Virus record (IMG/VR): IMGVR_UViG_2703718816_000006
Location: 1-7,608 of that record
From: a virus
Lineage: Duplodnaviria; Heunggongvirae; Uroviricota; Caudoviricetes
DNA length: 7,608 nucleotides
Strand: one strand, 5' to 3'
The notes beneath the pieces are model-generated. The model was not told the DNA's origin. It made no database searches and saw only the letters and a program-made list of their open reading frames with translations. This document shows positions 1 to 7,608 of this stretch, piece by piece. Made by a program: the position numbers and the translations under genes. Within the stretch, counting starts at the first letter, position 1. Each line of letters begins with the position of its first letter.

Positions 1-1617
1 CAGGGACATCAGGGATACCGCATTGAAGAGCGCCATCAGCGGGTCAATTTTCCCCCGTCCGCTGGCCTGTTTGGTAATAAGGATGGCGTTACCTCTGGGC
101 TCCACCCGGGCATTGCCAACGCACCAGGCCATCAGTGACTGACCACCATGCACCAGCACTCCCTCAGCCAGTTTGCGCTCGGTGGTTTTGATGGCCCCGC
201 CCAGCTTCCAGCCCTGGCTTATCCCCACCACAATTCCTTCGGGGATCCCGGCTTCTGCCAGTGAATCCAGAATCTGCCCCACACCTGACGGGTCAATACC
301 GATATGGTCCAGTAACTCAGCCTCATGAATACGACGCACATACTCCGCCACTTCCGCCGTGTCATCCCCGACCCGACGGACAATCGTCATGTCTCCACTG
401 GCCACAAAATCCTGAAACCGGGATGCTTCACTCTTCCGTCTGACCACCGCGGTTTCATGCGCCCAGGCATGGCCCCAGCCCAGCCATTCGCGGGTTTCCC
501 TGTCACGACCAATCACGTACATTCCCAGCAGATCATCCAGGCCCCCGCCGTCAATCCCCACCGTCACCACATCAGCGCGCTGCAGGATATCGTCCAGGCT
601 GACGCGCCTGCCCTGCTGCTCCCAGAAATCCGCACCCGCCCAGCGGTCAGAACGCAGGGCAAGACCAATTTCCACATTGGCGTGTTTTGACATGAAGCCA
701 CGAAATGCCTCCTCACCAGCCTCCCGGGCTTTACGGTACTCCCGATACAAAAAGGCCTCATCCACCGAATAACCGAGATTCGGGTTAACCATGGCGAGGT
801 TTTCCATCAGCAGGTGCTCACCGCGCTCCACCATCTCCGGCGGATGCTCAAATATCACCGGCAGAAAGTGCGGATCATTAATTTTGCCGTCGCGCACATC
901 CCGGGCGTACTGCAGTTTCTGTCTGAACACCCCGGCGGGCGGCTCATTCGACTGGGTGGTTGTGTACACAACAAACCCTTCCGGGCGGGAGGCAAGGCCG
1001 CCTATGGCTTCACGTAACATGTCCTCCGCTTTGTACTGCTTGCCAAACAGCCACAGTTCATCAATCAGCGTCCCCACGGACTTGATACCGGACACCGTAT
1101 TCGGATCGGCAGCCACCACCTTAAGGGTGGTGTCCGTCACCCTGTGGGTGATGGTCCGGATATGTGTCTGCACCTGACAGAGGTCATCCAGATCATCGTC
1201 CCGTCGTACCATATCCCTGGCAGGGTTGAAGGCGTTAGCCGCCACCTCCACGGTCGGGGCCAGAATGGTGTAGCCCGCCGCCTGCCGCCAGTTCAGTAAC
1301 AGCGCCGTCATCATGATCCCGGCAGCCAGCGTGGACTTGCTGTTTTTTTTGGGTATCAGAATGAACACTTCCTTTATATGGCGTATACCGGTCTGCGCAT
1401 CGTAGGAGCCAAACAGGGCCGCCACCAGGTCAAACACCCACGGTGCACAGGACTCCCCGAACGTCGGGCTGCCCGGTGCATCCACAATCCGCAGTTGTTT
1501 AAAAATCGCCAGGGCATGTGCGGCCTGCTCCGGGTAAATCGGAGCCGGAATAATCGACAGCCCCTTTTTCAGGCGCTCTGCCCAGTCCGGGCAGGCCGTG
1601 CTCCACACAGGTATCAT
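1..1617 (-). CDS. Terminase large subunit (ATPase + nuclease), partial: C-terminus lies beyond the left edge
   Basis: Manual translation from ATG at 1617..1615 gives MIPVWSTACPDWAERLKKG... and stays open to position 1 (end of window reads ...GRGKIDPLMALFNAVSLMSL). Deviant P-loop FILIPKKNSKST, Walker-B-like LIDELW, nuclease-like VGIDGGGLDD. The track omits it because there is no in-window stop. Start overlaps the TerS stop (ATGA). Confidence 0.88.
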   Translation of the reverse strand, partial: MIPVWSTACPDWAERLKKGLSIIPAPIYPEQAAHALAIFKQLRIVDAPGSPTFGESCAPWVFDLVAALFGSYDAQTGIRHIKEVFILIPKKNSKSTLAAGIMMTALLLNWRQAAGYTILAPTVEVAANAFNPARDMVRRDDDLDDLCQVQTHIRTITHRVTDTTLKVVAADPNTVSGIKSVGTLIDELWLFGKQYKAEDMLREAIGGLASRPEGFVVYTTTQSNEPPAGVFRQKLQYARDVRDGKINDPHFLPVIFEHPPEMVERGEHLLMENLAMVNPNLGYSVDEAFLYREYRKAREAGEEAFRGFMSKHANVEIGLALRSDRWAGADFWEQQGRRVSLDDILQRADVVTVGIDGGGLDDLLGMYVIGRDRETREWLGWGHAWAHETAVVRRKSEASRFQDFVASGDMTIVRRVGDDTAEVAEYVRRIHEAELLDHIGIDPSGVGQILDSLAEAGIPEGIVVGISQGWKLGGAIKTTERKLAEGVLVHGGQSLMAWCVGNARVEPRGNAILITKQASGRGKIDPLMALFNAVSLMSL

Positions 1618-2177
1618 CCGTTGCCCTCATTATCATTATTCACCACCAGGCGGGGTGGTGGTGGCACCGCAAAACGGTTAGCCGCTTTTTTCGCCGCGTC
1701 ACCTTTTGCCGATTTTTTACCGGCATCCCCTTTTTTGTGGTGCGTGAACTGCGCCAGCTTATAAGCCACATCCAGCGCCAGCCTGGGGTCGGTATTAATG
1801 TTCTCCACCAGAAGACGCCCCATCGCTTTCACCGGATCGGGAAGACCGTCCTCCATATACTCAATACCAGGAGATATCACCACGGGCGGTGGCATCTCCG
1901 GATTTGTTTCGTCCTGCTGTGGTATTGCAGCCGCCTCACGGCGACGGGGTTTATCCTCCTGCTCTGATTTTTTCTGCCGGTAAACAGGAACCTCATCCAC
2001 CTCCACCGTCTCGCACTGTTTACGGGCTATAAACGCAAGCACCTCCGGATCTTTTGCCAGCTGCGAGCCTTTAACCCTGGCTGTCTTCGCCGAATAACCG
2101 GCGGCAATGGCTGACGCTGTTTTGTTTTTCCCGGACATGAGCGCCAGCGCAAATTTTCGTTTTTGCGTTGTCAGCAC
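1614..2177 (-). CDS. Terminase small subunit
   Basis: 187-aa ORF immediately upstream of and overlapping TerL; basic, Lys/Ala-rich N-terminus typical of DNA-binding small terminases. Start is GTG at 2177 preceded by GGAGGAGG (complement of 2180..2187). Family assignment is from position and composition, not from a search. Confidence 0.75.
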   Translation of the reverse strand: MLTTQKRKFALALMSGKNKTASAIAAGYSAKTARVKGSQLAKDPEVLAFIARKQCETVEVDEVPVYRQKKSEQEDKPRRREAAAIPQQDETNPEMPPPVVISPGIEYMEDGLPDPVKAMGRLLVENINTDPRLALDVAYKLAQFTHHKKGDAGKKSAKGDAAKKAANRFAVPPPPRLVVNNDNEGNG

Positions 2178-2467
2178 AGCCTCCTCCCGGGTCCAGAACG
2201 CACTCAGCCGGGTATGGTTCAGCCCATTTTTCCCGGCGTCTCATGCCGCAAATGTTAACTGCTGCCTGGTTAACATTTGCTGAAAAAGCCTGTTAACATT
2301 TTTTCCACGCAACAAACTGAATAATAAAGATAAAAACCGAAAAAATGCCCGGGCAGCCAGTTAACATGTTAACTGCCCTGAAACGGGAATTTTTTCTCTG
2401 CGTGAGAGGGGGCGCGGTGTCCGGAGCGATCGTTTTTTACGCCGGATGATACCCCCCCCCGGTCGGG
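2178..2467. promoter_or_regulatory. Candidate cos / packaging-initiation region between HNH and TerS
   Basis: 290-bp non-coding gap in the position where HK97-like phages carry cos. Contains a GTTAACAT palindrome cluster (2248..2375), a GC-rich core cgtgagagggggcgcggtgtccggagcgatcg (2401..2432), a T6 run and a C9 homopolymer (2452..2460). Exact cos ends cannot be determined from sequence. Confidence 0.4.
2248..2375. repeat. Cluster of five GTTAACAT octamers (three direct, two inverted) in two palindromes
   Basis: Inverted repeat gcaaatgttaac-N9-gttaacatttgc (2248..2280), a further copy at 2292..2299, and the perfect 18-bp palindrome cagttaacatgttaactg (2358..2375). Confidence 0.7.
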
Positions 2468-2833
2468 TTACAGTCCGATGATGTCGTCCGCTCTGCCACT
2501 ACCTCCGGACACCTCCGGCAGCGTCGGGTCCGGCATACCACCCGCCGCTTCACGAGCAGACTTTTGTCGATGGCATTCGGTACAGAGCGTCCAGAGATTC
2601 GTCTCCTCATTACCACCACCGAACTGAAGTGCAATTCGGTGATCGAGTTCACTGTCACAGAGGTCAACCACACGACCACAGAGACAGCACTGCCCGGCGT
2701 CCCTGAGCCAGATATGACGCTTGAGGGAAACACGTGCACTGCCACTGACACGACGCTGTTCACCATTCAGAATATTCACCCGTCGGGTATTCAGTGTTTT
2801 GATTCTGCTCTGGAGTGTACGAAGCTCAGCCAT
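2468..2833 (-). CDS. HNH endonuclease (terminase-associated type)
   Basis: 121 aa with HNH signature CCLCGRVVDLCDSELDHRIALQFGGGNEETNLWTLCTECH (CxxC...DH...N...CxxCH). ATG at 2833 with GGGGA upstream. Sits directly upstream of cos/TerS as in HK97-like packaging modules. Confidence 0.85.
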   Translation of the reverse strand: MAELRTLQSRIKTLNTRRVNILNGEQRRVSGSARVSLKRHIWLRDAGQCCLCGRVVDLCDSELDHRIALQFGGGNEETNLWTLCTECHRQKSAREAAGGMPDPTLPEVSGGSGRADDIIGL

Positions 2834-2874
2834 GTAAAATCCCCGTCATATGGCAATCAGTAAAGGAAATAAAT

Positions 2875-3045
2875 ATGTCATCGAAAAACCGGACCCGCAG
2901 AACCACAACCCGCAATATCCGTTTCCCCAATCACATGATTGAACAGATCAACATCGCCCTTGAGCATAAAGGGTCCGGTAACTTTTCAGCGTGGGTTATT
3001 GAAGCCTGTCGCCGGAGACTGACAACTGACAAGAAAACATGCTAA
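2875..3045 (+). CDS. Small ribbon-helix-helix (Arc/MetJ/CopG-like) DNA-binding protein, 56 aa
   Basis: ATG at 2875 preceded by AAGGAAAT (SD about 7 nt upstream). MSSKNRTRRTTTRNIRFPNHMIEQINIALEHKGSGNFSAWVIEACRRRL fits the RHH pattern of basic N-terminus, beta-strand, helix, Gly turn, helix. Divergent from HNH (41 bp between starts). Called by motif resemblance only. Confidence 0.55.
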   Translation: MSSKNRTRRTTTRNIRFPNHMIEQINIALEHKGSGNFSAWVIEACRRRLTTDKKTC

Positions 3046-3240
3046 TCGCATAACAAGTTTAAAGAATGAGGCCAGAGGGTCGGACCGTTTCTCTGCCCCT
3101 TTATATAACTAATCTTTAACATTGCCGGCTTTACGATAACTTAAAGTTATTACCTACAGTTATTCCGAATTGAAATAATCCGTCACATAAAATAAAACAA
3201 AAGAATAATAATAATAATCTTCTACCCTTATCCAATCTTT

Positions 3241-3271
3241 ACTGCTGTGCGCCAACACAGCAGTTTTTTTT
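3241..3271 (+). terminator. Rho-independent terminator (plus strand)
   Basis: Stem ctgctgtg (3242..3249) / cacagcag (3256..3263), 6-nt loop, then T8 (3264..3271). Probably ends the RHH transcript and/or unit 1 of the AT-rich island. Confidence 0.6.
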
Positions 3272-3804
3272 GATTATGCTCACATATTTTTTATTCCCCA
3301 GCCGTGATGCACATTACACCTGTTTCTTTTCAATTCAGGCTTTTTCCAGGTATATCTGAATCTCATCCGGTGGCTTCTGCATCGTTATCAGCAAAAAATA
3401 CGGCCGCTACACTGACAAAAGCTCTCGAGAGCAGTTGCACCCATTTTTCGCTTAAAGATTCACTCAGTAAAATAAGGAGAAATTCACAATCATGTTCAGG
3501 CGGCAAACATTATAAAATTAAAACGCCAGACTTGCATAAATAATCCTATGAAGGCTGAACATACTTAAAGCAGTGTGTTATATAAGAGTAAACAACACCC
3601 TATAAAAACCTGCCCCCACACAAGGAGCCACAAAGGCAATTTTATACGCTCCAAACATTATTCAGAAAAGCTTAACAATAAGAAATATTCTTTTCGTCAT
3701 TCATCTCAACTGTCTGATGGACACCGCCCAGTCCCGCAACATGGAGCATAATAGAAGTAAATAACGTATAGTAAGTATTATAATTCAGGCTCGATTATTT
3801 CGAG

Positions 3805-3832
3805 TTGAAAACAACTCTGAAAAAATGATAAT
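3805..3832 (+). promoter_or_regulatory. Candidate sigma70 promoter (TTGAAA - 16 bp - GATAAT)
   Basis: -35 TTGAAA at 3805..3810 and -10 GATAAT at 3827..3832 with TG immediately upstream; palindrome ctcgattatttcgag (3790..3804) abuts the -35. By-eye prediction only. Confidence 0.3.
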
Positions 3833-3838
3833 AAAAAA

Positions 3839-3907
3839 ATAACAACAATACCATTCTCTTCTGCATGTGCCATCACCTGCCGTTGCTACAACCCGGCAGG
3901 TTTTTTT
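3839..3907 (+). ncRNA. Candidate small RNA (~65-70 nt) between predicted promoter and terminator
   Basis: Predicted start about 7 nt after the -10, ending at the 3876..3907 terminator; no ORF with an RBS in the interval. Purely structural inference, no homology known to me. Confidence 0.25.
3876..3907 (+). terminator. Rho-independent terminator (plus strand)
   Basis: Stem cctgccg (3876..3882) / cggcagg (3894..3900) with an 11-nt loop, followed by T7 (3901..3907). No T-run on the other strand, so unidirectional. Confidence 0.6.
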
Positions 3908-4107
3908 ATTGTCTAAACTCCAGATTCTTCCACCATCGCACCGGACTGGCGACTATGAGGGGACAACGCCGCGCTCCGTTAACGCGGTAAACCCCGGTGT
4001 GTATCGTTTTTGATTATCCCCACAAACTCTCGCAGAGGAGTCTCCCTGTCGGGCTGCGGTATCTGTTAATGCGGGAATACGGCGACGATACGGCGCATCA
4101 GCAAAAC

Positions 4108-4575
4108 TTATTTCAGACACTGAGTGCGGATATATTCCTGCGCCCCTTCCAGCTGCTTCTGCATTGTCATCAACCGTTCTCTGAGGATGAAATAATCCCA
4201 TTCAGCGGTGTCTGCCAGTCGGGGGCCGGTTGCATTATCCACGCCGGAGGTGCCGGTGGCTTCACGCACGGTACCGGAGCAGGTGGCGTTGATCCGCAGG
4301 CGCTTACGACCAGCGGCAACATCAGCACGCAGAGTTTCATTTTCAGCTCTCGCATCGGCTAATTCCCTCGAGTATCTGGCATCAAGCGCAGCAACATCAC
4401 CCTGGCGCTGCTGCATATCAGTAATAGTGGCATTCGCCAGTTTCAGCTCACTGACTTTTTTATCGCGCTGCGCTTTGTAGGTGATGGCGTTATCACGGTA
4501 ATGATTCAGCCCCAGACTAAGCACACCACAGGCTACCAGCAGGGCAATGATGACCACGCACAGAACACGGTTCAT
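4108..4575 (-). CDS. Rz: Rz i-spanin (inner-membrane spanin subunit)
   Basis: 155 aa from ATG at 4575: [40 protein letters not shown]...[20 protein letters not shown]-terminal TM helix plus coiled-coil periplasmic domain, closely resembling lambda Rz as I recall it. The track ORF extends 28 codons further upstream, judged non-coding. Confidence 0.9.
4170..4355 (-). CDS. Rz1: Rz1 o-spanin lipoprotein, embedded in Rz in an alternative frame
   Basis: 61 aa [61 protein letters not shown]: lipobox LVVSAC and Pro-rich mature region, closely resembling lambda Rz1. Lies entirely inside Rz. Confidence 0.85.
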
Positions 4576-4674
4576 ATCACCACCAACGGATTGCCCAGAC
4601 CAGAACAGCAATGGCCACAATACGAATGGAAAATGCCATTGCCCGAATAAATTCAGCACTCATCTTTTTAAAGT

Positions 4675-4857
4675 TCACGATTTCAGCGCAATGACCAGTT
4701 TTGCCAGCCCATACAGCATCGGAGACACAGCGATACCAACCGCCACCCACTTAATAGCAAAAGCCAGCGCTCTGCTGATGTCATCAGTTACTGGCGCTTT
4801 CAGTTCAAGGCCGTTTTTCATAGTCAACCTCAACAGAATTCGTTTATACTTTTCCAT
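4675..4857 (-). CDS. Hypothetical small membrane protein (60 aa; alternative start at 4821 gives 48 aa)
   Basis: ATG at 4857 preceded by AGGGAG; alternative ATG at 4821 preceded by GAGG. One C-terminal hydrophobic helix ALAFAIKWVAVGIAVSPMLYGLAKLVIAL. Sits between endolysin and Rz; no family recognised. Confidence 0.4.
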   Translation of the reverse strand: MEKYKRILLRLTMKNGLELKAPVTDDISRALAFAIKWVAVGIAVSPMLYGLAKLVIALKS

Positions 4858-4894
4858 GTTCTCCCTTGCCTTATCCAAGGTCAGAAACACAAAA

Positions 4895-4924
4895 CCCCGC
4901 TTGCTGCCAACAAACGGGGTTTTT
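4895..4924. terminator. Hairpin with T-runs on both sides (bidirectional terminator-like)
   Basis: Stem ccccgcttg (4895..4903) / caaacgggg (4911..4919), 8 of 9 bp, 7-nt loop, then T5 on the plus strand and TTTTGTGTT on the minus strand. Between the endolysin stop and the small membrane gene. Confidence 0.4.
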
Positions 4925-5013
4925 ACTTTTATTCACTTAGGTTTTGCCAGTTCGCAGGATTTCGTGTTATCCGCCCGCGTTGGCCAACGTCATTTTTCAG
5001 CAAAATATTCTGC

Positions 5014-5547
5014 TTATCTGTCGACTCCCCAGCACGCCAGCGCACTCTCCTGGTCGCGACGGGATACCTGACCGTAGCAATTATTTGAGCGAATACGGCA
5101 GTCTCTGCCACCGTCCTTAATCCACCAGCGAATCGCTTCACACGCTCCCCTGCGATCGCCTGCATTAATTCGTTTATAAAACGTCGACGGGAAACACTTA
5201 CCGGGGCCAATGTTGTACGGACAGAATGACGCGATCCCCGCTTTCTGGGGTTCGCTCAATGGCACTTTGATGTTTTTCTCCACCCATGCCAGCGCCTTAT
5301 CACGCTCAATGGCGTTAACCCGGTCGCATTTTCCCTTCGACAGCTTCATGCCAGGAATAACAGGCTTACCATCCACCCGGGTGGCTCCACGGCAGATGGT
5401 CCAGATCCCCGCACCATCACGGTATGCCGTGGTGTGGTTACCTTCTTTTTCGTCAAGAAACTGGTCGAGGATTTCAGGCGCAGACGCCCCTGCACCAATC
5501 AGCGCCAGAACGGCAGCCGACAGGCCGTATCGGATTTTTGCGTTCAT
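5014..5547 (-). CDS. R: SAR endolysin (T4-lysozyme-like / GH24 muramidase with signal-anchor-release N-terminus)
   Basis: 177 aa. Catalytic motif E-x8-D-x5-T in DEKEGNHTTAYRDGAGIWTICRGAT; N-terminus MNAKIRYGLSAAVLALIGAGASA is a Gly/Ala-rich weakly hydrophobic helix typical of SAR domains. No strong SD upstream of the ATG at 5547. Confidence 0.85.
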   Translation of the reverse strand: MNAKIRYGLSAAVLALIGAGASAPEILDQFLDEKEGNHTTAYRDGAGIWTICRGATRVDGKPVIPGMKLSKGKCDRVNAIERDKALAWVEKNIKVPLSEPQKAGIASFCPYNIGPGKCFPSTFYKRINAGDRRGACEAIRWWIKDGGRDCRIRSNNCYGQVSRRDQESALACWGVDR

Positions 5548-5675
5548 GGATATTTATCAGGATTTATCGGTTCCGGCCCCCTGGATATGTTAAGTCTTCA
5601 GCCTGCCAGTGGTGGGCACTGGCGTTTTATCTGCTGGCTGAAAATATATCTGACAATTCCAGTCGAGGATTAACC

Positions 5676-5990
5676 ATGCATAACCATCAACATAATTATG
5701 ATTTATACCTGCAAGCCATAAATGAGCGGGTAAAATCGGAATGCCTTTTACTCCTCCTGCAAGAACACGAAGCAGTAAAGGCCATTCAGGCTGAACCGTA
5801 TGGAGCTCTCACTACTGCAACTCTCAGTATTATATCCGGAGCATTAACACCAACCTTGCTCCTTCGCCTGAAAGACAATATAGATGACTGGTTAAACGAA
5901 GAATTAAACTACCTTGAATGTGAGTGGGATCATCATTACGCCAAATCACAAAAAGAACGCATCTTCCGTCGATTATCCGGCAACAGATAA
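5676..5990 (+). CDS. Hypothetical protein, 104 aa, convergent with the 213-aa gene
   Basis: ATG at 5676 preceded by GAGGA (5665..5669). Protein-like composition, no TM segment, AT-richer than the flanking phage genes. The track ORF 5424..5990 extends upstream into the endolysin gene on the opposite strand; the internal start is preferred. No family recognised. Confidence 0.45.
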   Translation: MHNHQHNYDLYLQAINERVKSECLLLLLQEHEAVKAIQAEPYGALTTATLSIISGALTPTLLLRLKDNIDDWLNEELNYLECEWDHHYAKSQKERIFRRLSGNR

Positions 5991-5999
5991 CGAGCCAGC

Positions 6000-6641
6000 T
6001 TATATACGTCCTTTAAGATAAGTCAGTCCGGGATGAAACCAGTAAGCCGGCACTTTTTTAAAGGGCGGATTATCAAAATCACGAAGAAGAGCCTCCCGCA
6101 CAACTGCATCCTTGTCCGCACCACTGGCCAGCGCTTCAATCTCAGCAGCTACCTGCAGATATCCCATGCAACGACCAATGCGCTGCATCAGCCCCTGCTT
6201 TTTATTGTTCTTCAGGTAATCAATGGCAAATTCAGTGAGCGCCTCACTGTGCTGGTGCGATGCCGGTGTTACTTTCCCATCTTCACGGATCGTGATATTC
6301 CAGTCATCGCTGCTCACAATAAAAGATGGCCGATTACACTCCCATTCCTGGTCTTTATCCGGTGCAGACGCAATAAAATAACGTTTATTGCCTTCCTCTC
6401 CGGCACTTTTAACCGTAATGGAGTACTTTTCTGACAATGCGGTCGGTAAAAACTTTTCCTGCAAAATATTCGCAAAGGTCCTGCGAGCAATTTTGATGCA
6501 ATCATCGTAAAACGCCGCAAACTGCTCATCGCGGCGTTTTTTTGCATCTTCAGAAGGCATCAGCGCCGACAGTTTTTTATTCAGTTCAGCAATTTCATTT
6601 TCCAGACGACTTATGCGCCGATTCATTTCTTCATGCTTCAT
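6000..6641 (-). CDS. Hypothetical protein, 213 aa, translationally coupled to the holin
   Basis: ATG at 6641 lies 3 nt after the holin stop (TAG at 6647..6645) with GGGGAGAG inside the holin 3' end. N-terminal coiled-coil-like segment RRISRLENEIAELNKKLSAL, soluble, no motif I recognise. Inserted where phage-21-type cassettes have holin and endolysin adjacent. Confidence 0.6.
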   Translation of the reverse strand: MKHEEMNRRISRLENEIAELNKKLSALMPSEDAKKRRDEQFAAFYDDCIKIARRTFANILQEKFLPTALSEKYSITVKSAGEEGNKRYFIASAPDKDQEWECNRPSFIVSSDDWNITIREDGKVTPASHQHSEALTEFAIDYLKNNKKQGLMQRIGRCMGYLQVAAEIEALASGADKDAVVREALLRDFDNPPFKKVPAYWFHPGLTYLKGRI

Positions 6642-6644
6642 TAT

Positions 6645-6860
6645 CTACTCTCCCCGGGCCGCCTTACGCCGGTCTTCTTTAATTTTGAAATACAGGTTAG
6701 TCAGATACGTCAGCAGACCAAACAGCAGACTCCCCAGCACGCCTATTGCCGCCCACTGAGACGGGGAAACCCTGTCCAGCAGCTGCAGGAACCAGTAGCC
6801 CGTCCCCACCGCTGACGTGGTGTATGACACACCTGTTGTGATTTTTTCCATCTGGTACAT
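6645..6860 (-). CDS. S: Class II holin of the phage 21 S21 pinholin type, with dual-start motif
   Basis: 71 aa [71 protein letters not shown]: two TM segments, charged C-terminus, Met1/Met4 dual start (antiholin/holin). Closely resembles S21 as I recall it; GGGAGA upstream. Confidence 0.88.
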
Positions 6861-6935
6861 ATCCCGTCTCCCGCAATCCGGAAGCTCACAACAACAAGAG
6901 GGGCATCAGCTCACACCGACAGCCCCTGCGCATGG

Positions 6936-7205
6936 TTACATCATCATTTCGCCGTCAGGCTGAGGCTCACTGCCACCATCAGGCTGAGACACGACACCAT
7001 CTGAAACAGCACTGTCACCCGCACCGTCTTCAGGCCCGGGAGCAGCCGTTACCCCCAGCAGTTCATCCAGAATGGCATCCACTTCAGCATCAAGACGCGC
7101 CTCAAGATTCTGGCGGAGTTGCTGTTTCAGTACGCTTCTGACTTCTTCAGAGCGCAGGACTTCCTTCACTGCTTCAGCAGTGACCAGCGGTTTTATTTCT
7201 GACAT
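6936..7205 (-). CDS. Hypothetical acidic protein, 89 aa
   Basis: ATG at 7205 preceded by a weak SD (GAGAAAATACC). MSEIKPLVTAEAVKEVLRSEEVRSVLKQQLRQNLEARLDAEVDAILDELLG... then an acidic Gly/Pro/Asp-rich tail. The track ORF 6936..7319 is an upstream extension overlapping the next gene and is rejected. No family recognised. Confidence 0.4.
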   Translation of the reverse strand: MSEIKPLVTAEAVKEVLRSEEVRSVLKQQLRQNLEARLDAEVDAILDELLGVTAAPGPEDGAGDSAVSDGVVSQPDGGSEPQPDGEMMM

Positions 7206-7242
7206 GGTATTTTCTCGTTGAAAGGTGTTGTTAAGAAAGTTG

Positions 7243-7425
7243 CTACGGAATGAGAGGCTCTTCGGGTTTTGTTCCGGCTGACTGACTGGCGCTGATTTTC
7301 TCAGCGGCCCTTTTGTCAATCTGTCTGCGCCAGAAATCTCTCACGACTCTGTACCCACCAGAAAGAAGATACAGCACACAAACTGCTGTACAGAAATACA
7401 ATAAAATAAGCTGTATAAATGTCAT
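7243..7425 (-). CDS. Hypothetical small membrane protein, 60 aa
   Basis: ATG at 7425 preceded by GGAG (spacing about 7). N-terminal TM helix FIQLILLYFCTAVCVLYLL followed by a basic tail. Upstream of the holin in the same orientation. Confidence 0.45.
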   Translation of the reverse strand: MTFIQLILLYFCTAVCVLYLLSGGYRVVRDFWRRQIDKRAAEKISASQSAGTKPEEPLIP

Positions 7426-7519
7426 TATTCATCTCCATTATTGACATGGTTAATGCCTGCCAGTAAAAAACTCCTGCATTTTTTGCTCAGCATATTTTTG
7501 CTAAGGATGTAGCGACCTC

Positions 7520-7568
7520 TGCCGCCGGTTCTGGCTCCTTGTTTTCCCTGCCCCGGCGGCATTTTTTT
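7520..7568 (+). terminator. Terminator-like hairpin plus T7 on the plus strand
   Basis: 9-bp GC-rich stem tgccgccgg (7520..7528) / ccggcggca (7553..7561) with a long 24-nt loop, then T7 (7562..7568). No T-run on the minus strand. Function unclear; may belong to the late promoter/regulatory region. Confidence 0.3.
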
Positions 7569-7608
7569 ATCCTGCTTACGCGTTATTCACTTCCACTGTT
7601 ATACTTTC

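Follow-up and report, generated by a model that had tools for sequence, protein, structure and literature searches.

A hypervariable slot between the S21-type holin and endolysin genes of Escherichia coli prophages, and the convergent YdfR-family and reverse-moron genes that occupy it in one allele

The junction between the holin gene (S) and the endolysin gene (R) of phage-21-type (S21-type) lysis cassettes is a hypervariable accessory slot in Escherichia coli prophages, and the DNA analysed here holds one allele of it. That DNA, hereafter the window, is a stretch of 7,608 nucleotides (nt), positions 1 to 7,608 of IMG/VR record IMGVR_UViG_2703718816_000006; it is the minus-strand late region of a lambdoid prophage and is 100% identical to E. 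coli OkiPb01678. Its slot, at positions 5548 to 6644, carries a late gene for a protein of 213 amino acids (aa) and, on the opposite strand and convergent with it, a gene for a protein of 104 aa. Both open reading frames (ORFs) are listed by RefSeq as hypothetical proteins in the 100% identical E. coli prophage.

The 213-aa gene is assigned to the modular YdfR family, minus the N-terminal DUF1327 domain, and the 104-aa gene is assigned to the cargoes of reverse-moron cassettes of the type known from gp23 of phages HK97 and HK022. The identity of these parts is highly probable. The long proteins of the YdfR family share a conserved C-terminal domain, which is named YdfR-C here, and the convergent pair of a YdfR-C gene and a 104-family gene is conserved in E. 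coli and Salmonella. Functional coupling of the two genes is the view towards which we incline slightly; the complete proposal, in which the window segment is a slot allele with a late YdfR-C gene and a reverse moron that are functionally coupled, stands about evenly between acceptance and doubt.

The ydfR slot and reverse morons are both of known kinds, and the newest element is a structured leader that is common to many unrelated cargoes. Seen as a slot, the segment is no longer an oddity but becomes tractable by comparison. The S-R junction of S21-type cassettes is a hot spot of recombination and cargo among prophages of pathogenic E. coli, Shiga toxin (Stx) phages among them. The conserved convergent pair, in turn, yields a concrete, testable hypothesis for two unannotated proteins. 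The features of the slot and its borders, in window coordinates, are as follows.

6645 to 6860, minus strand: class II holin (pinholin) of the S21 type, 71 aa, bordering the slot upstream (PF04971 'Bacteriophage P21 holin S', 7.2e-33, residues 5-67)
6655 to 6648, minus strand: Shine-Dalgarno-like GGGGAGAG for the 213-aa gene, within the holin 3' end (direct sequence reading)
6000 to 6641, minus strand: 213-aa late gene, assigned to the YdfR family without DUF1327 (phrog_1085, 7e-103)
6450 to 6641, minus strand: coiled coil of the 213-aa protein, residues 1-64 (AlphaFold2 model)
Residues ~65-104 of the 213-aa protein: linker, variable or disordered
6003 to 6329, minus strand: conserved YdfR-C domain of the 213-aa protein, residues ~105-213 (family alignment)
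5991 to 5999, no strand: 9-base-pair (bp) spacer between the convergent stops, terminator-free
5676 to 5990, plus strand: 104-aa gene, assigned as reverse-moron cargo, with a predicted cytoplasmic five-helix bundle as product (phrog_1853, 2e-41; AlphaFold2)
5665 to 5669, plus strand: Shine-Dalgarno GAGGA, ending 6 nt ahead of the 104-aa ATG (direct sequence reading)
5598 to 5665, plus strand: putative reverse-moron leader, ~65 nt (covariance model and minimum-free-energy fold)
5563 to 5591, plus strand: promoter-like TTTATC-17 nt-TATGTT, weakly sigma-70-like (position weight matrix scan; no call by the consensus scan)
5014 to 5547, minus strand: putative signal-anchor-release (SAR)-type endolysin R, 177 aa, the downstream border of the slot (PF00959 lysozyme, 5.6e-24; 'lysozyme' in RefSeq)

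The slot between holin and endolysin

The OkiPb01678 prophage adjoins an integrase gene beside a DUF72-family gene, and no stx annotation is present in the examined 25.5-kb late-region stretch of the window's prophage. The late genes are ordered DUF1378, DUF826, S21 holin, 213-aa gene, 104-aa gene (opposite strand), endolysin, a small ORF, Rz/Rz1, HNH and terminase. Several attributes of a phage-21-type cassette are found here: an S21-type holin of about 71 aa (a 'class II holin family protein' in RefSeq), a lysozyme with a SAR-like segment (the hydrophobic N-terminus YGLSAAVLALIGAGASA, whose SAR behaviour is putative), and an Rz gene (PF03245, 3.9e-48) with an Rz1-like ORF embedded in it at 4170-4355. 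The adjacency of S and R that also characterises such cassettes is not found in the window, where 1097 bp lie between them.

The initial annotation of this DNA took S21/R21 adjacency to be the normal state and the intervening segment to be a two-gene insertion. When 80 viral contigs with this holin were fetched and the holin-endolysin distance was measured in the 73 loci that yielded both genes, it was 4 bp in only 9 of them; in the other 64 it ranged from 374 to 1445 bp and fell into 24 further length classes. Adjacency is thus the minority state, and because 64 of 73 loci are occupied and the Qin prophage of E. coli K-12 carries ydfR at this place (in the order essQ-ydfR-rrrQ), the premise of adjacency fails for this prophage group. 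That said, because S and R stand 4 bp apart in the remaining nine, the segment is accessory DNA that is dispensable for a working S21/R21 cassette, and to that extent the word insertion is apt. The comparison of related prophages that the initial annotation had proposed does find loci without the insert, but it also finds many alternative occupants, so the window is not a singular case.

Filled slots have a sense gene that begins 3-4 nt past the holin stop. The sense occupants are ydfR-family genes of varying module make-up, and this close junction is found in all ydfR-family alleles. On the minus strand of the window the holin stop TAG (6647-6645) is followed by ATA and then by the ATG at 6641, a spacing of 3 nt. 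With this start and with its Shine-Dalgarno sequence inside the holin 3' end, the 213-aa gene is placed for co-expression with the holin, as the initial annotation had proposed. The coordinates it gave, the stop/ATG spacing, the Shine-Dalgarno sequence, the 9-bp gap between the convergent stops and the lower G + C content were likewise all found in the sequence as described; the G + C fraction is 0.43-0.49 over 5551-6600, versus 0.53-0.58 in the endolysin and the holin upstream flank. Its contention that late transcription must run antisense through the 104-aa gene is also borne out. A consensus scan of the late strand from 5548 to 6000 found neither promoter-like nor terminator-like sites, and R is reachable only by transcription antisense through the 104-aa gene because no late-strand promoter-like site lies in that interval.

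Antisense occupants are often added to the sense gene, and at least five unrelated kinds have been found: the 104-aa family, a DUF1823-annotated protein, a 90-aa family, a 70-91-aa family, and a 210-aa ORF. Antisense cargoes other than the 104-aa family were observed between the holin and the next late gene in loci L002, L005, L010, L012, L029 and L087, each tied to a particular ydfR-family 3' end; they comprise the DUF1823-annotated protein, the 90-aa 'MDNNTISL' family, the 70-91-aa 'MSEENSK' family, the 210-aa ORF and a DUF1883 protein.

The two genes of the slot and the leader of the reverse moron

The initial annotation recognised no family for either protein. Both belong to PHROG families (phrog_1085 and phrog_1853, with the values given above), and the 213-aa protein is homologous to what NCBI names the 'YdfR family'. 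Fully 99% of the 213-aa protein aligns, at 60-66% identity, to PF07041-bearing members of that family that are 287-333 aa long, the aligned part being the C-terminal two thirds of these long forms (residues ~100-296). The family alignment reveals a modular architecture of N-terminal DUF1327, linker, coiled coil, an optional middle segment and the C-terminal YdfR-C domain, which carries the motif HRDxII...NMLKRLGRCMGLLQVAAEIEA...DFDNPPFKxVP..W..PG..YLK.R., and the 213-aa protein begins at the coiled coil. YdfR of K-12 consists of the DUF1327 domain alone, 81% identical over 74 aa to the N-terminal domain of the long forms. Its gene lies in the same slot as the 213-aa gene, starting 3-4 nt past the stop of an S21-type holin and upstream of the endolysin, yet the one domain it encodes is exactly the one that the 213-aa protein is without. 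PF07041 (DUF1327) is not matched by the 213-aa protein at E<=1, and BLASTP gives no alignment between that protein and K-12 YdfR. Homology to the multi-domain members, together with the position directly past the holin, places the gene in the YdfR family as a form minus the N-terminal domain.

Little else resembles the 213-aa protein. No Pfam, NCBIfam or PADLOC match above cut-off was found, and an exhaustive hidden Markov model search of 1.84 billion representative proteins returned only 43 relatives, the distant ones having YdfR-C behind DUF1327-like N-termini; none of the 43 provided a link to a known domain. The AlphaFold2 model has a mean predicted local distance difference test score (pLDDT) of 48, is poor beyond the coiled coil, and was not used for fold searches. 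Neither the sequence nor the predicted helices contain a visible transmembrane or signal segment. The protein is probably an oligomeric, cytoplasmic accessory protein made late with the holin, and both it and the 104-aa protein would lie outside the core lysis machinery.

A study from 2026 reported binding of YdfR residues 1-72 to the N-terminal domain of RNase E, its catalytic half, and co-purification of YdfR with RNA (PMC13232886). Because the DUF1327 module is absent from the 213-aa protein, these data are not transferable to it; the modularity of the family means that the RNase E-binding result covers one module only. The same result bears on one of the roles that the initial annotation had listed, in which the 213-aa protein would be a lysis-timing modulator acting on the holin or the endolysin, with or without its partner. 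Such a role would suit the translational coupling of the gene to the holin, as well as the fact that YdfR-family genes always adjoin lysis genes, just past or just before the holin. This position counts for little, however, because the interval between Q and the lysis genes serves as a moron site in general. Moreover, the one studied member of the family binds RNase E, not lysis proteins (PMC13232886), the lack of a transmembrane or signal segment fits a lysis function poorly, and the nine loci in which S and R adjoin indicate that related cassettes work without the gene. We give this explanation very little chance.

The 104-aa ORF is a real gene under purifying selection. It can be regarded as such because the ratio of nonsynonymous to synonymous substitution rates (dN/dS) is 0.24-0.33 against diverged alleles, below that of all five control frames, and because AlphaFold2 predicts a confident five-helix bundle (pLDDT 90.7, predicted template modelling score 0.83). 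The alternative, that the region is only a non-coding spacer or an antisense RNA, could point to the missing consensus promoter and to the small size of the family (47 clusters), but dN/dS is low and at its lowest in the annotated frame, that frame is preserved in two genera at 34-49% identity, and the Shine-Dalgarno spacing and the predicted fold are both good; this reading is already effectively refuted. No Pfam or NCBIfam match above cut-off was found for the 104-aa protein, nor a PADLOC match, and PADLOC gave nothing below E=0.04 for either protein. Profile matches to PDB sequences were set aside as coiled-coil or designed-helix noise.

Several attributes mark the 104-aa gene as a moron: it is additional DNA separating two genes that adjoin each other in related phages, its base composition deviates, and it is oriented against the late operon. 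What ties it to the gp23 type of HK97 and HK022 is a conserved leader, recognised by a covariance model (R1), and a homologous upstream block, and on these grounds the gene is classed as the cargo of such a cassette. A terminator of its own directly past the ORF, also expected of a moron, is not found; beyond the 9-bp spacer, the nearest terminator-like site on the plus strand is at 6469-6487.

The predicted minimum-free-energy fold of the window leader pairs UCAGCC (5598-5603) with GGCUGA (5636-5641) to form a stem, P1, that encloses a hairpin, P2 (5604-5624), situated 51 nt upstream of the 104-aa ATG. The same leader precedes all 104-family genes, those of distant loci included, as well as at least 20 unrelated antisense cargo families. 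A scan of viral contigs with the leader pattern found at least 120 stretches (loci L149-L268), and the ORFs directly downstream, 62-154 aa long, make up these at least 20 families. Among the matches listed, 76 of 88 cassettes are antisense to both flanking long ORFs, and a location between lambda-like tail genes is typical. HK022 gp23, annotated 'srb protein; moron gene product', and HK97 gp23, annotated 'reverse moron product', both belong to this set; the element is at 5563-5665 (plus strand) in the window and at 7205-7385 (minus strand) in HK022 (L149), HK97 being L153.

Alignment of one copy per cargo type defined a conserved module of ~190 nt, which comprises, in order, a late-strand terminator, the block CTACTGtctgAATATCAGGrTGTT...CCCTGGTTAAGGT, the leader and a Shine-Dalgarno sequence. 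The canonical leader reads UCAGCC-[P2 hairpin]-...-GGAGG-GAU-GGCUGA-UUA-CCUCU. RNAalifold recovers P1 (UCAGCC:GGCUGA) enclosing P2, and a further helix, P3 (GGAGG:CCUCU), crosses P1 as a predicted pseudoknot; 5 of the 6 pairs of P3 show compensatory changes. P1 and P2 hardly vary, which is due in part to their use in ascertainment; L271 has C-G in place of U-A at one P1 pair. In the window, P1 and P2 are retained and a canonical P3 is not evident. Model R1 was built from 56 leaders, no 104-type cassette among them, and scores the window copy at 32.4 bits (E ~2e-6) and the Salmonella 104-type leaders at 36-72 bits. Canonical copies of the module were also observed to be flanked by a late-strand terminator upstream and by their own terminator downstream.

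No Rfam family was matched by the leader in searches of the window and HK022. No description of it was found in Rfam or in the searchable literature, although an earlier description in Juhala et al. 2000 is possible, and literature searches on the slot, on 'reverse moron' and on 'srb' returned nothing relevant. The gp23 genes of HK97 and HK022 (GenBank AF069529 and AF069308) are the closest known systems, each a small ORF of deviating base composition set against the late operon, with the same upstream region and leader, between genes that are adjacent in relatives. Their cargo is unrelated to the 104-aa protein, and they lie between tail genes I and J rather than in the lysis cassette. The window copy further differs from them in having neither the flanking late-strand terminator nor the downstream terminator nor the canonical P3.

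The promoter-like element TTTATC-17 nt-TATGTT lies in the intergenic region from which the 104-aa gene and R diverge, and ends 6 nt ahead of the leader. Its homologue in the canonical cassettes is the upstream block ...ATCAGGrTGTT...CCCTGGTTAAGGT, and in the Salmonella loci it has a counterpart at an equal distance from the leader. It is a candidate promoter that may be active. Other identities were considered for these elements and rejected. An intrinsic terminator does not suit the leader hairpin, as most copies have no T-run and the element lies upstream of the ORF instead of downstream. Compared by eye with consensus sequences, the upstream block has CTG-N9-CAG rather than the N10 of a LexA box and does not fit a CRP, sigma-54, sigma-32 or sigma-E site, and the hairpin does not fit attC or a repetitive extragenic palindromic (REP) element.

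The region upstream of the endolysin gene, 5548-5625, is conserved in H-19B and in many Stx1 and Stx2 phages without the 104-aa gene. The shared part includes the promoter-like block together with as much as half of the leader hairpin, the homology ending in the hairpin or just past it. A break at this point is as expected if the hairpin marked a recombination boundary, or if these phages retained remnants of a lost cassette. Judged by eye, the cargo ORFs of 65-78 aa in L179, L199, L210 and L263 resemble DUF1327-like domains, with beta-strand-like segments followed by '...SL(A/K)EIE..A...', which hints at a common small fold.

The convergent pair

A 104-family gene was found in 54 viral loci, and in 52 of them it is convergent with, and abuts, a YdfR-C gene. 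The arrangement recurs in all seven Salmonella-type loci, whose database homologues are from Salmonella enterica, including salamae and diarizonae. Identity to the window proteins there is 34-48% for the 104-aa family and 38-47% for the YdfR-C domain; the sense proteins are 184-318 aa long and differ in their N-terminal halves, and the distance from stop to stop varies from a 33-bp overlap to a 19-bp gap. Where their flanks are known, the Salmonella-type pairs lie between Q/HicAB and the holin, not between holin and endolysin, and the holin is mostly of another type.

Closer relatives of the window allele occupy the same slot in Stx phages. The Stx2-converting phage 86 carries the same pair as orf5/orf6 (partner 76% and C-domain 81% identical), and the Stx2a phage Stx2_12E129 carries it with the partner 91% and the full-length 213-aa protein 85% identical. 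Both of these phages carry stx, for which there is no annotation in the 25.5-kb stretch examined in the window's prophage, and orf5 of phage 86 is a 268-aa long form with DUF1327 and without the coiled-coil segment.

The 104-family cassettes differ from HK97 gp23, which has an annotated terminator. On the cargo strand of the window and of Salmonella-type locus L089, the first terminator-like site comes ~480-620 nt past the stop, inside the YdfR-C gene, and a scan of ~980 nt in L274, also of the Salmonella type, revealed no such site. Because the cassette has no terminator of its own, the 104-family transcript would be expected to extend antisense into the YdfR-C gene. On the late strand, the ydfR-like gene and the reverse moron are bracketed by strong intrinsic terminators in both L089 (4934-4957 and 6236-6255) and L274 (4694-4671 and 3382-3364). 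HicAB, upstream of the Salmonella-type unit, shares the late strand in L274 and is oppositely oriented in L089, and L276 has a pertussis-toxin-S1-like gene nearby (a faint Pfam match).

These observations suggest how the two genes might be coupled. The late operon would yield a YdfR-C coiled-coil protein translationally coupled to the holin, while the 104-aa cassette would form a transcription unit of its own, directed against the late operon and presumably active in the repressed prophage. The 104-aa protein made in the lysogen would most likely antagonise or sense the late YdfR-C protein, which might come from leaky expression of the prophage itself or from a superinfecting relative. Coupling could involve the two proteins, or it could act on RNA by way of the antisense transcript that has no terminator. 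A precedent for the latter is STnc6030 of Salmonella prophage BTP1, a lysogen-expressed transcript antisense to late genes, for which pairing with late mRNA was proposed to exclude related phages (PMC7067206). The likeness lies in a transcription unit antisense to prophage late genes; STnc6030, however, is non-coding, whereas the window encodes a conserved protein and any antisense action of its transcript is deduced from the missing terminator. Coupling as such is, in our view, somewhat better supported than its absence, but a specific role of the 104-aa protein as antagonist or sensor is a doubtful guess.

A number of findings weigh against coupling. The YdfR-C gene stands without its partner in 15 of the 22 E. 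coli sample loci that carry it, and also in the distant loci L087, L088 and L091, and a 104-like gene stands alone between S and R in L140 and L146. The identities of the two proteins are uncorrelated from locus to locus (C-domain 97% with partner 73%, 79-82% with 92-93%, and 92% with 47-49%), and because of this a tightly co-evolving interface is disfavoured. Many of the 52 loci are close relatives, and the independent lineages number only ~13. No promoter passes the consensus scan, and the AlphaFold2 model of the 213-aa protein is too poor for interpretation. Finally, the profile and structure searches that the initial annotation had recommended, while placing both proteins in PHROG families, found no relative with known function by sequence or fold.

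In the main rival explanation, the two are independent neighbours. The 104-aa gene would then be a stand-alone moron for lysogenic conversion or superinfection exclusion and the 213-aa gene an unrelated late accessory gene, the two travelling together since a single ancestral cassette insertion behind a YdfR-C gene and inherited as a block. Recombination occurs between the two genes, each is indeed found alone, and the divergence of one is uncorrelated with that of the other. At many other late-operon positions, cassettes with this leader hold at least 20 unrelated cargoes, and late-region antisense morons are typically autonomous accessory loci (PMC7067206, PMC3594210). Against mere co-inheritance, adjacency has been kept down to ~35-47% identity, at a different position (upstream of the holin in Salmonella) and beside sense proteins of differing N-terminal architecture, and the 104-family cargo is consistently without its own terminator. 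We consider independence of the two genes a serious possibility, albeit on the unlikely side.

The initial annotation also offered a toxin/immunity pair or an abortive-infection module, in which one protein would be toxic and the other would neutralise it. A conserved two-gene pair of small, cytoplasmic, uncharacterised proteins is of the right general form, and the pair in Salmonella phages lies in a region that also carries HicAB and RelB/ParE modules. The genes are convergent rather than operonic, however, and neither protein has a PADLOC match. The obligatory co-occurrence of toxin and antitoxin is not found either: each gene is present alone in apparently intact cassettes, as in the 15 of 22 loci, L140 and L146 mentioned above, and the divergence of the two is uncorrelated. 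This proposal finds no support, and we think it highly improbable.

Functional coupling, the reading we prefer, can be combined with the properties of the leader into a broader and more tentative proposal, that the ~190-nt module is an undescribed portable expression platform, or new class of cis-regulatory RNA, for reverse morons and that the 104-aa/YdfR-C pair is a dedicated conflict module. The upstream block and the pseudoknotted leader would then drive dozens of unrelated cargoes in E. coli and Salmonella prophages, and a late phage protein or mRNA would be the target of the protein made in the lysogen or of the terminator-less antisense transcript. The shared leader could explain the expression of many unrelated accessory genes from repressed prophages, and it also serves as a search handle.

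Other features of the window

A weak Rfam match to Esr41, a small RNA of enterohaemorrhagic E. coli, lies at 7485-7570 (plus strand); it scores 23 bits against a gathering threshold of 102 and is most likely due to chance. Between Rz and the HNH/terminase genes, an antisense gene of the YlcI/YnfO (DUF3950) family, comparable to ynfO of K-12 Qin, occupies 2815-3045 (plus strand), without the reverse-moron hairpin in front of it. From this YnfO-like gene to Rz extends an AT-rich stretch of ~1 kb (3046-4107, G + C fraction 0.36-0.43), which is gene-free in RefSeq and contains short ORFs only. A second accessory position, at 4675-4923 (minus strand), separates the endolysin gene from Rz. There, a strong terminator-like hairpin with a 15-bp stem (4923-4891) directly follows the endolysin gene, and past it lies a 71-aa ORF (phrog_1115) that RefSeq annotates as a 60-aa hypothetical protein.

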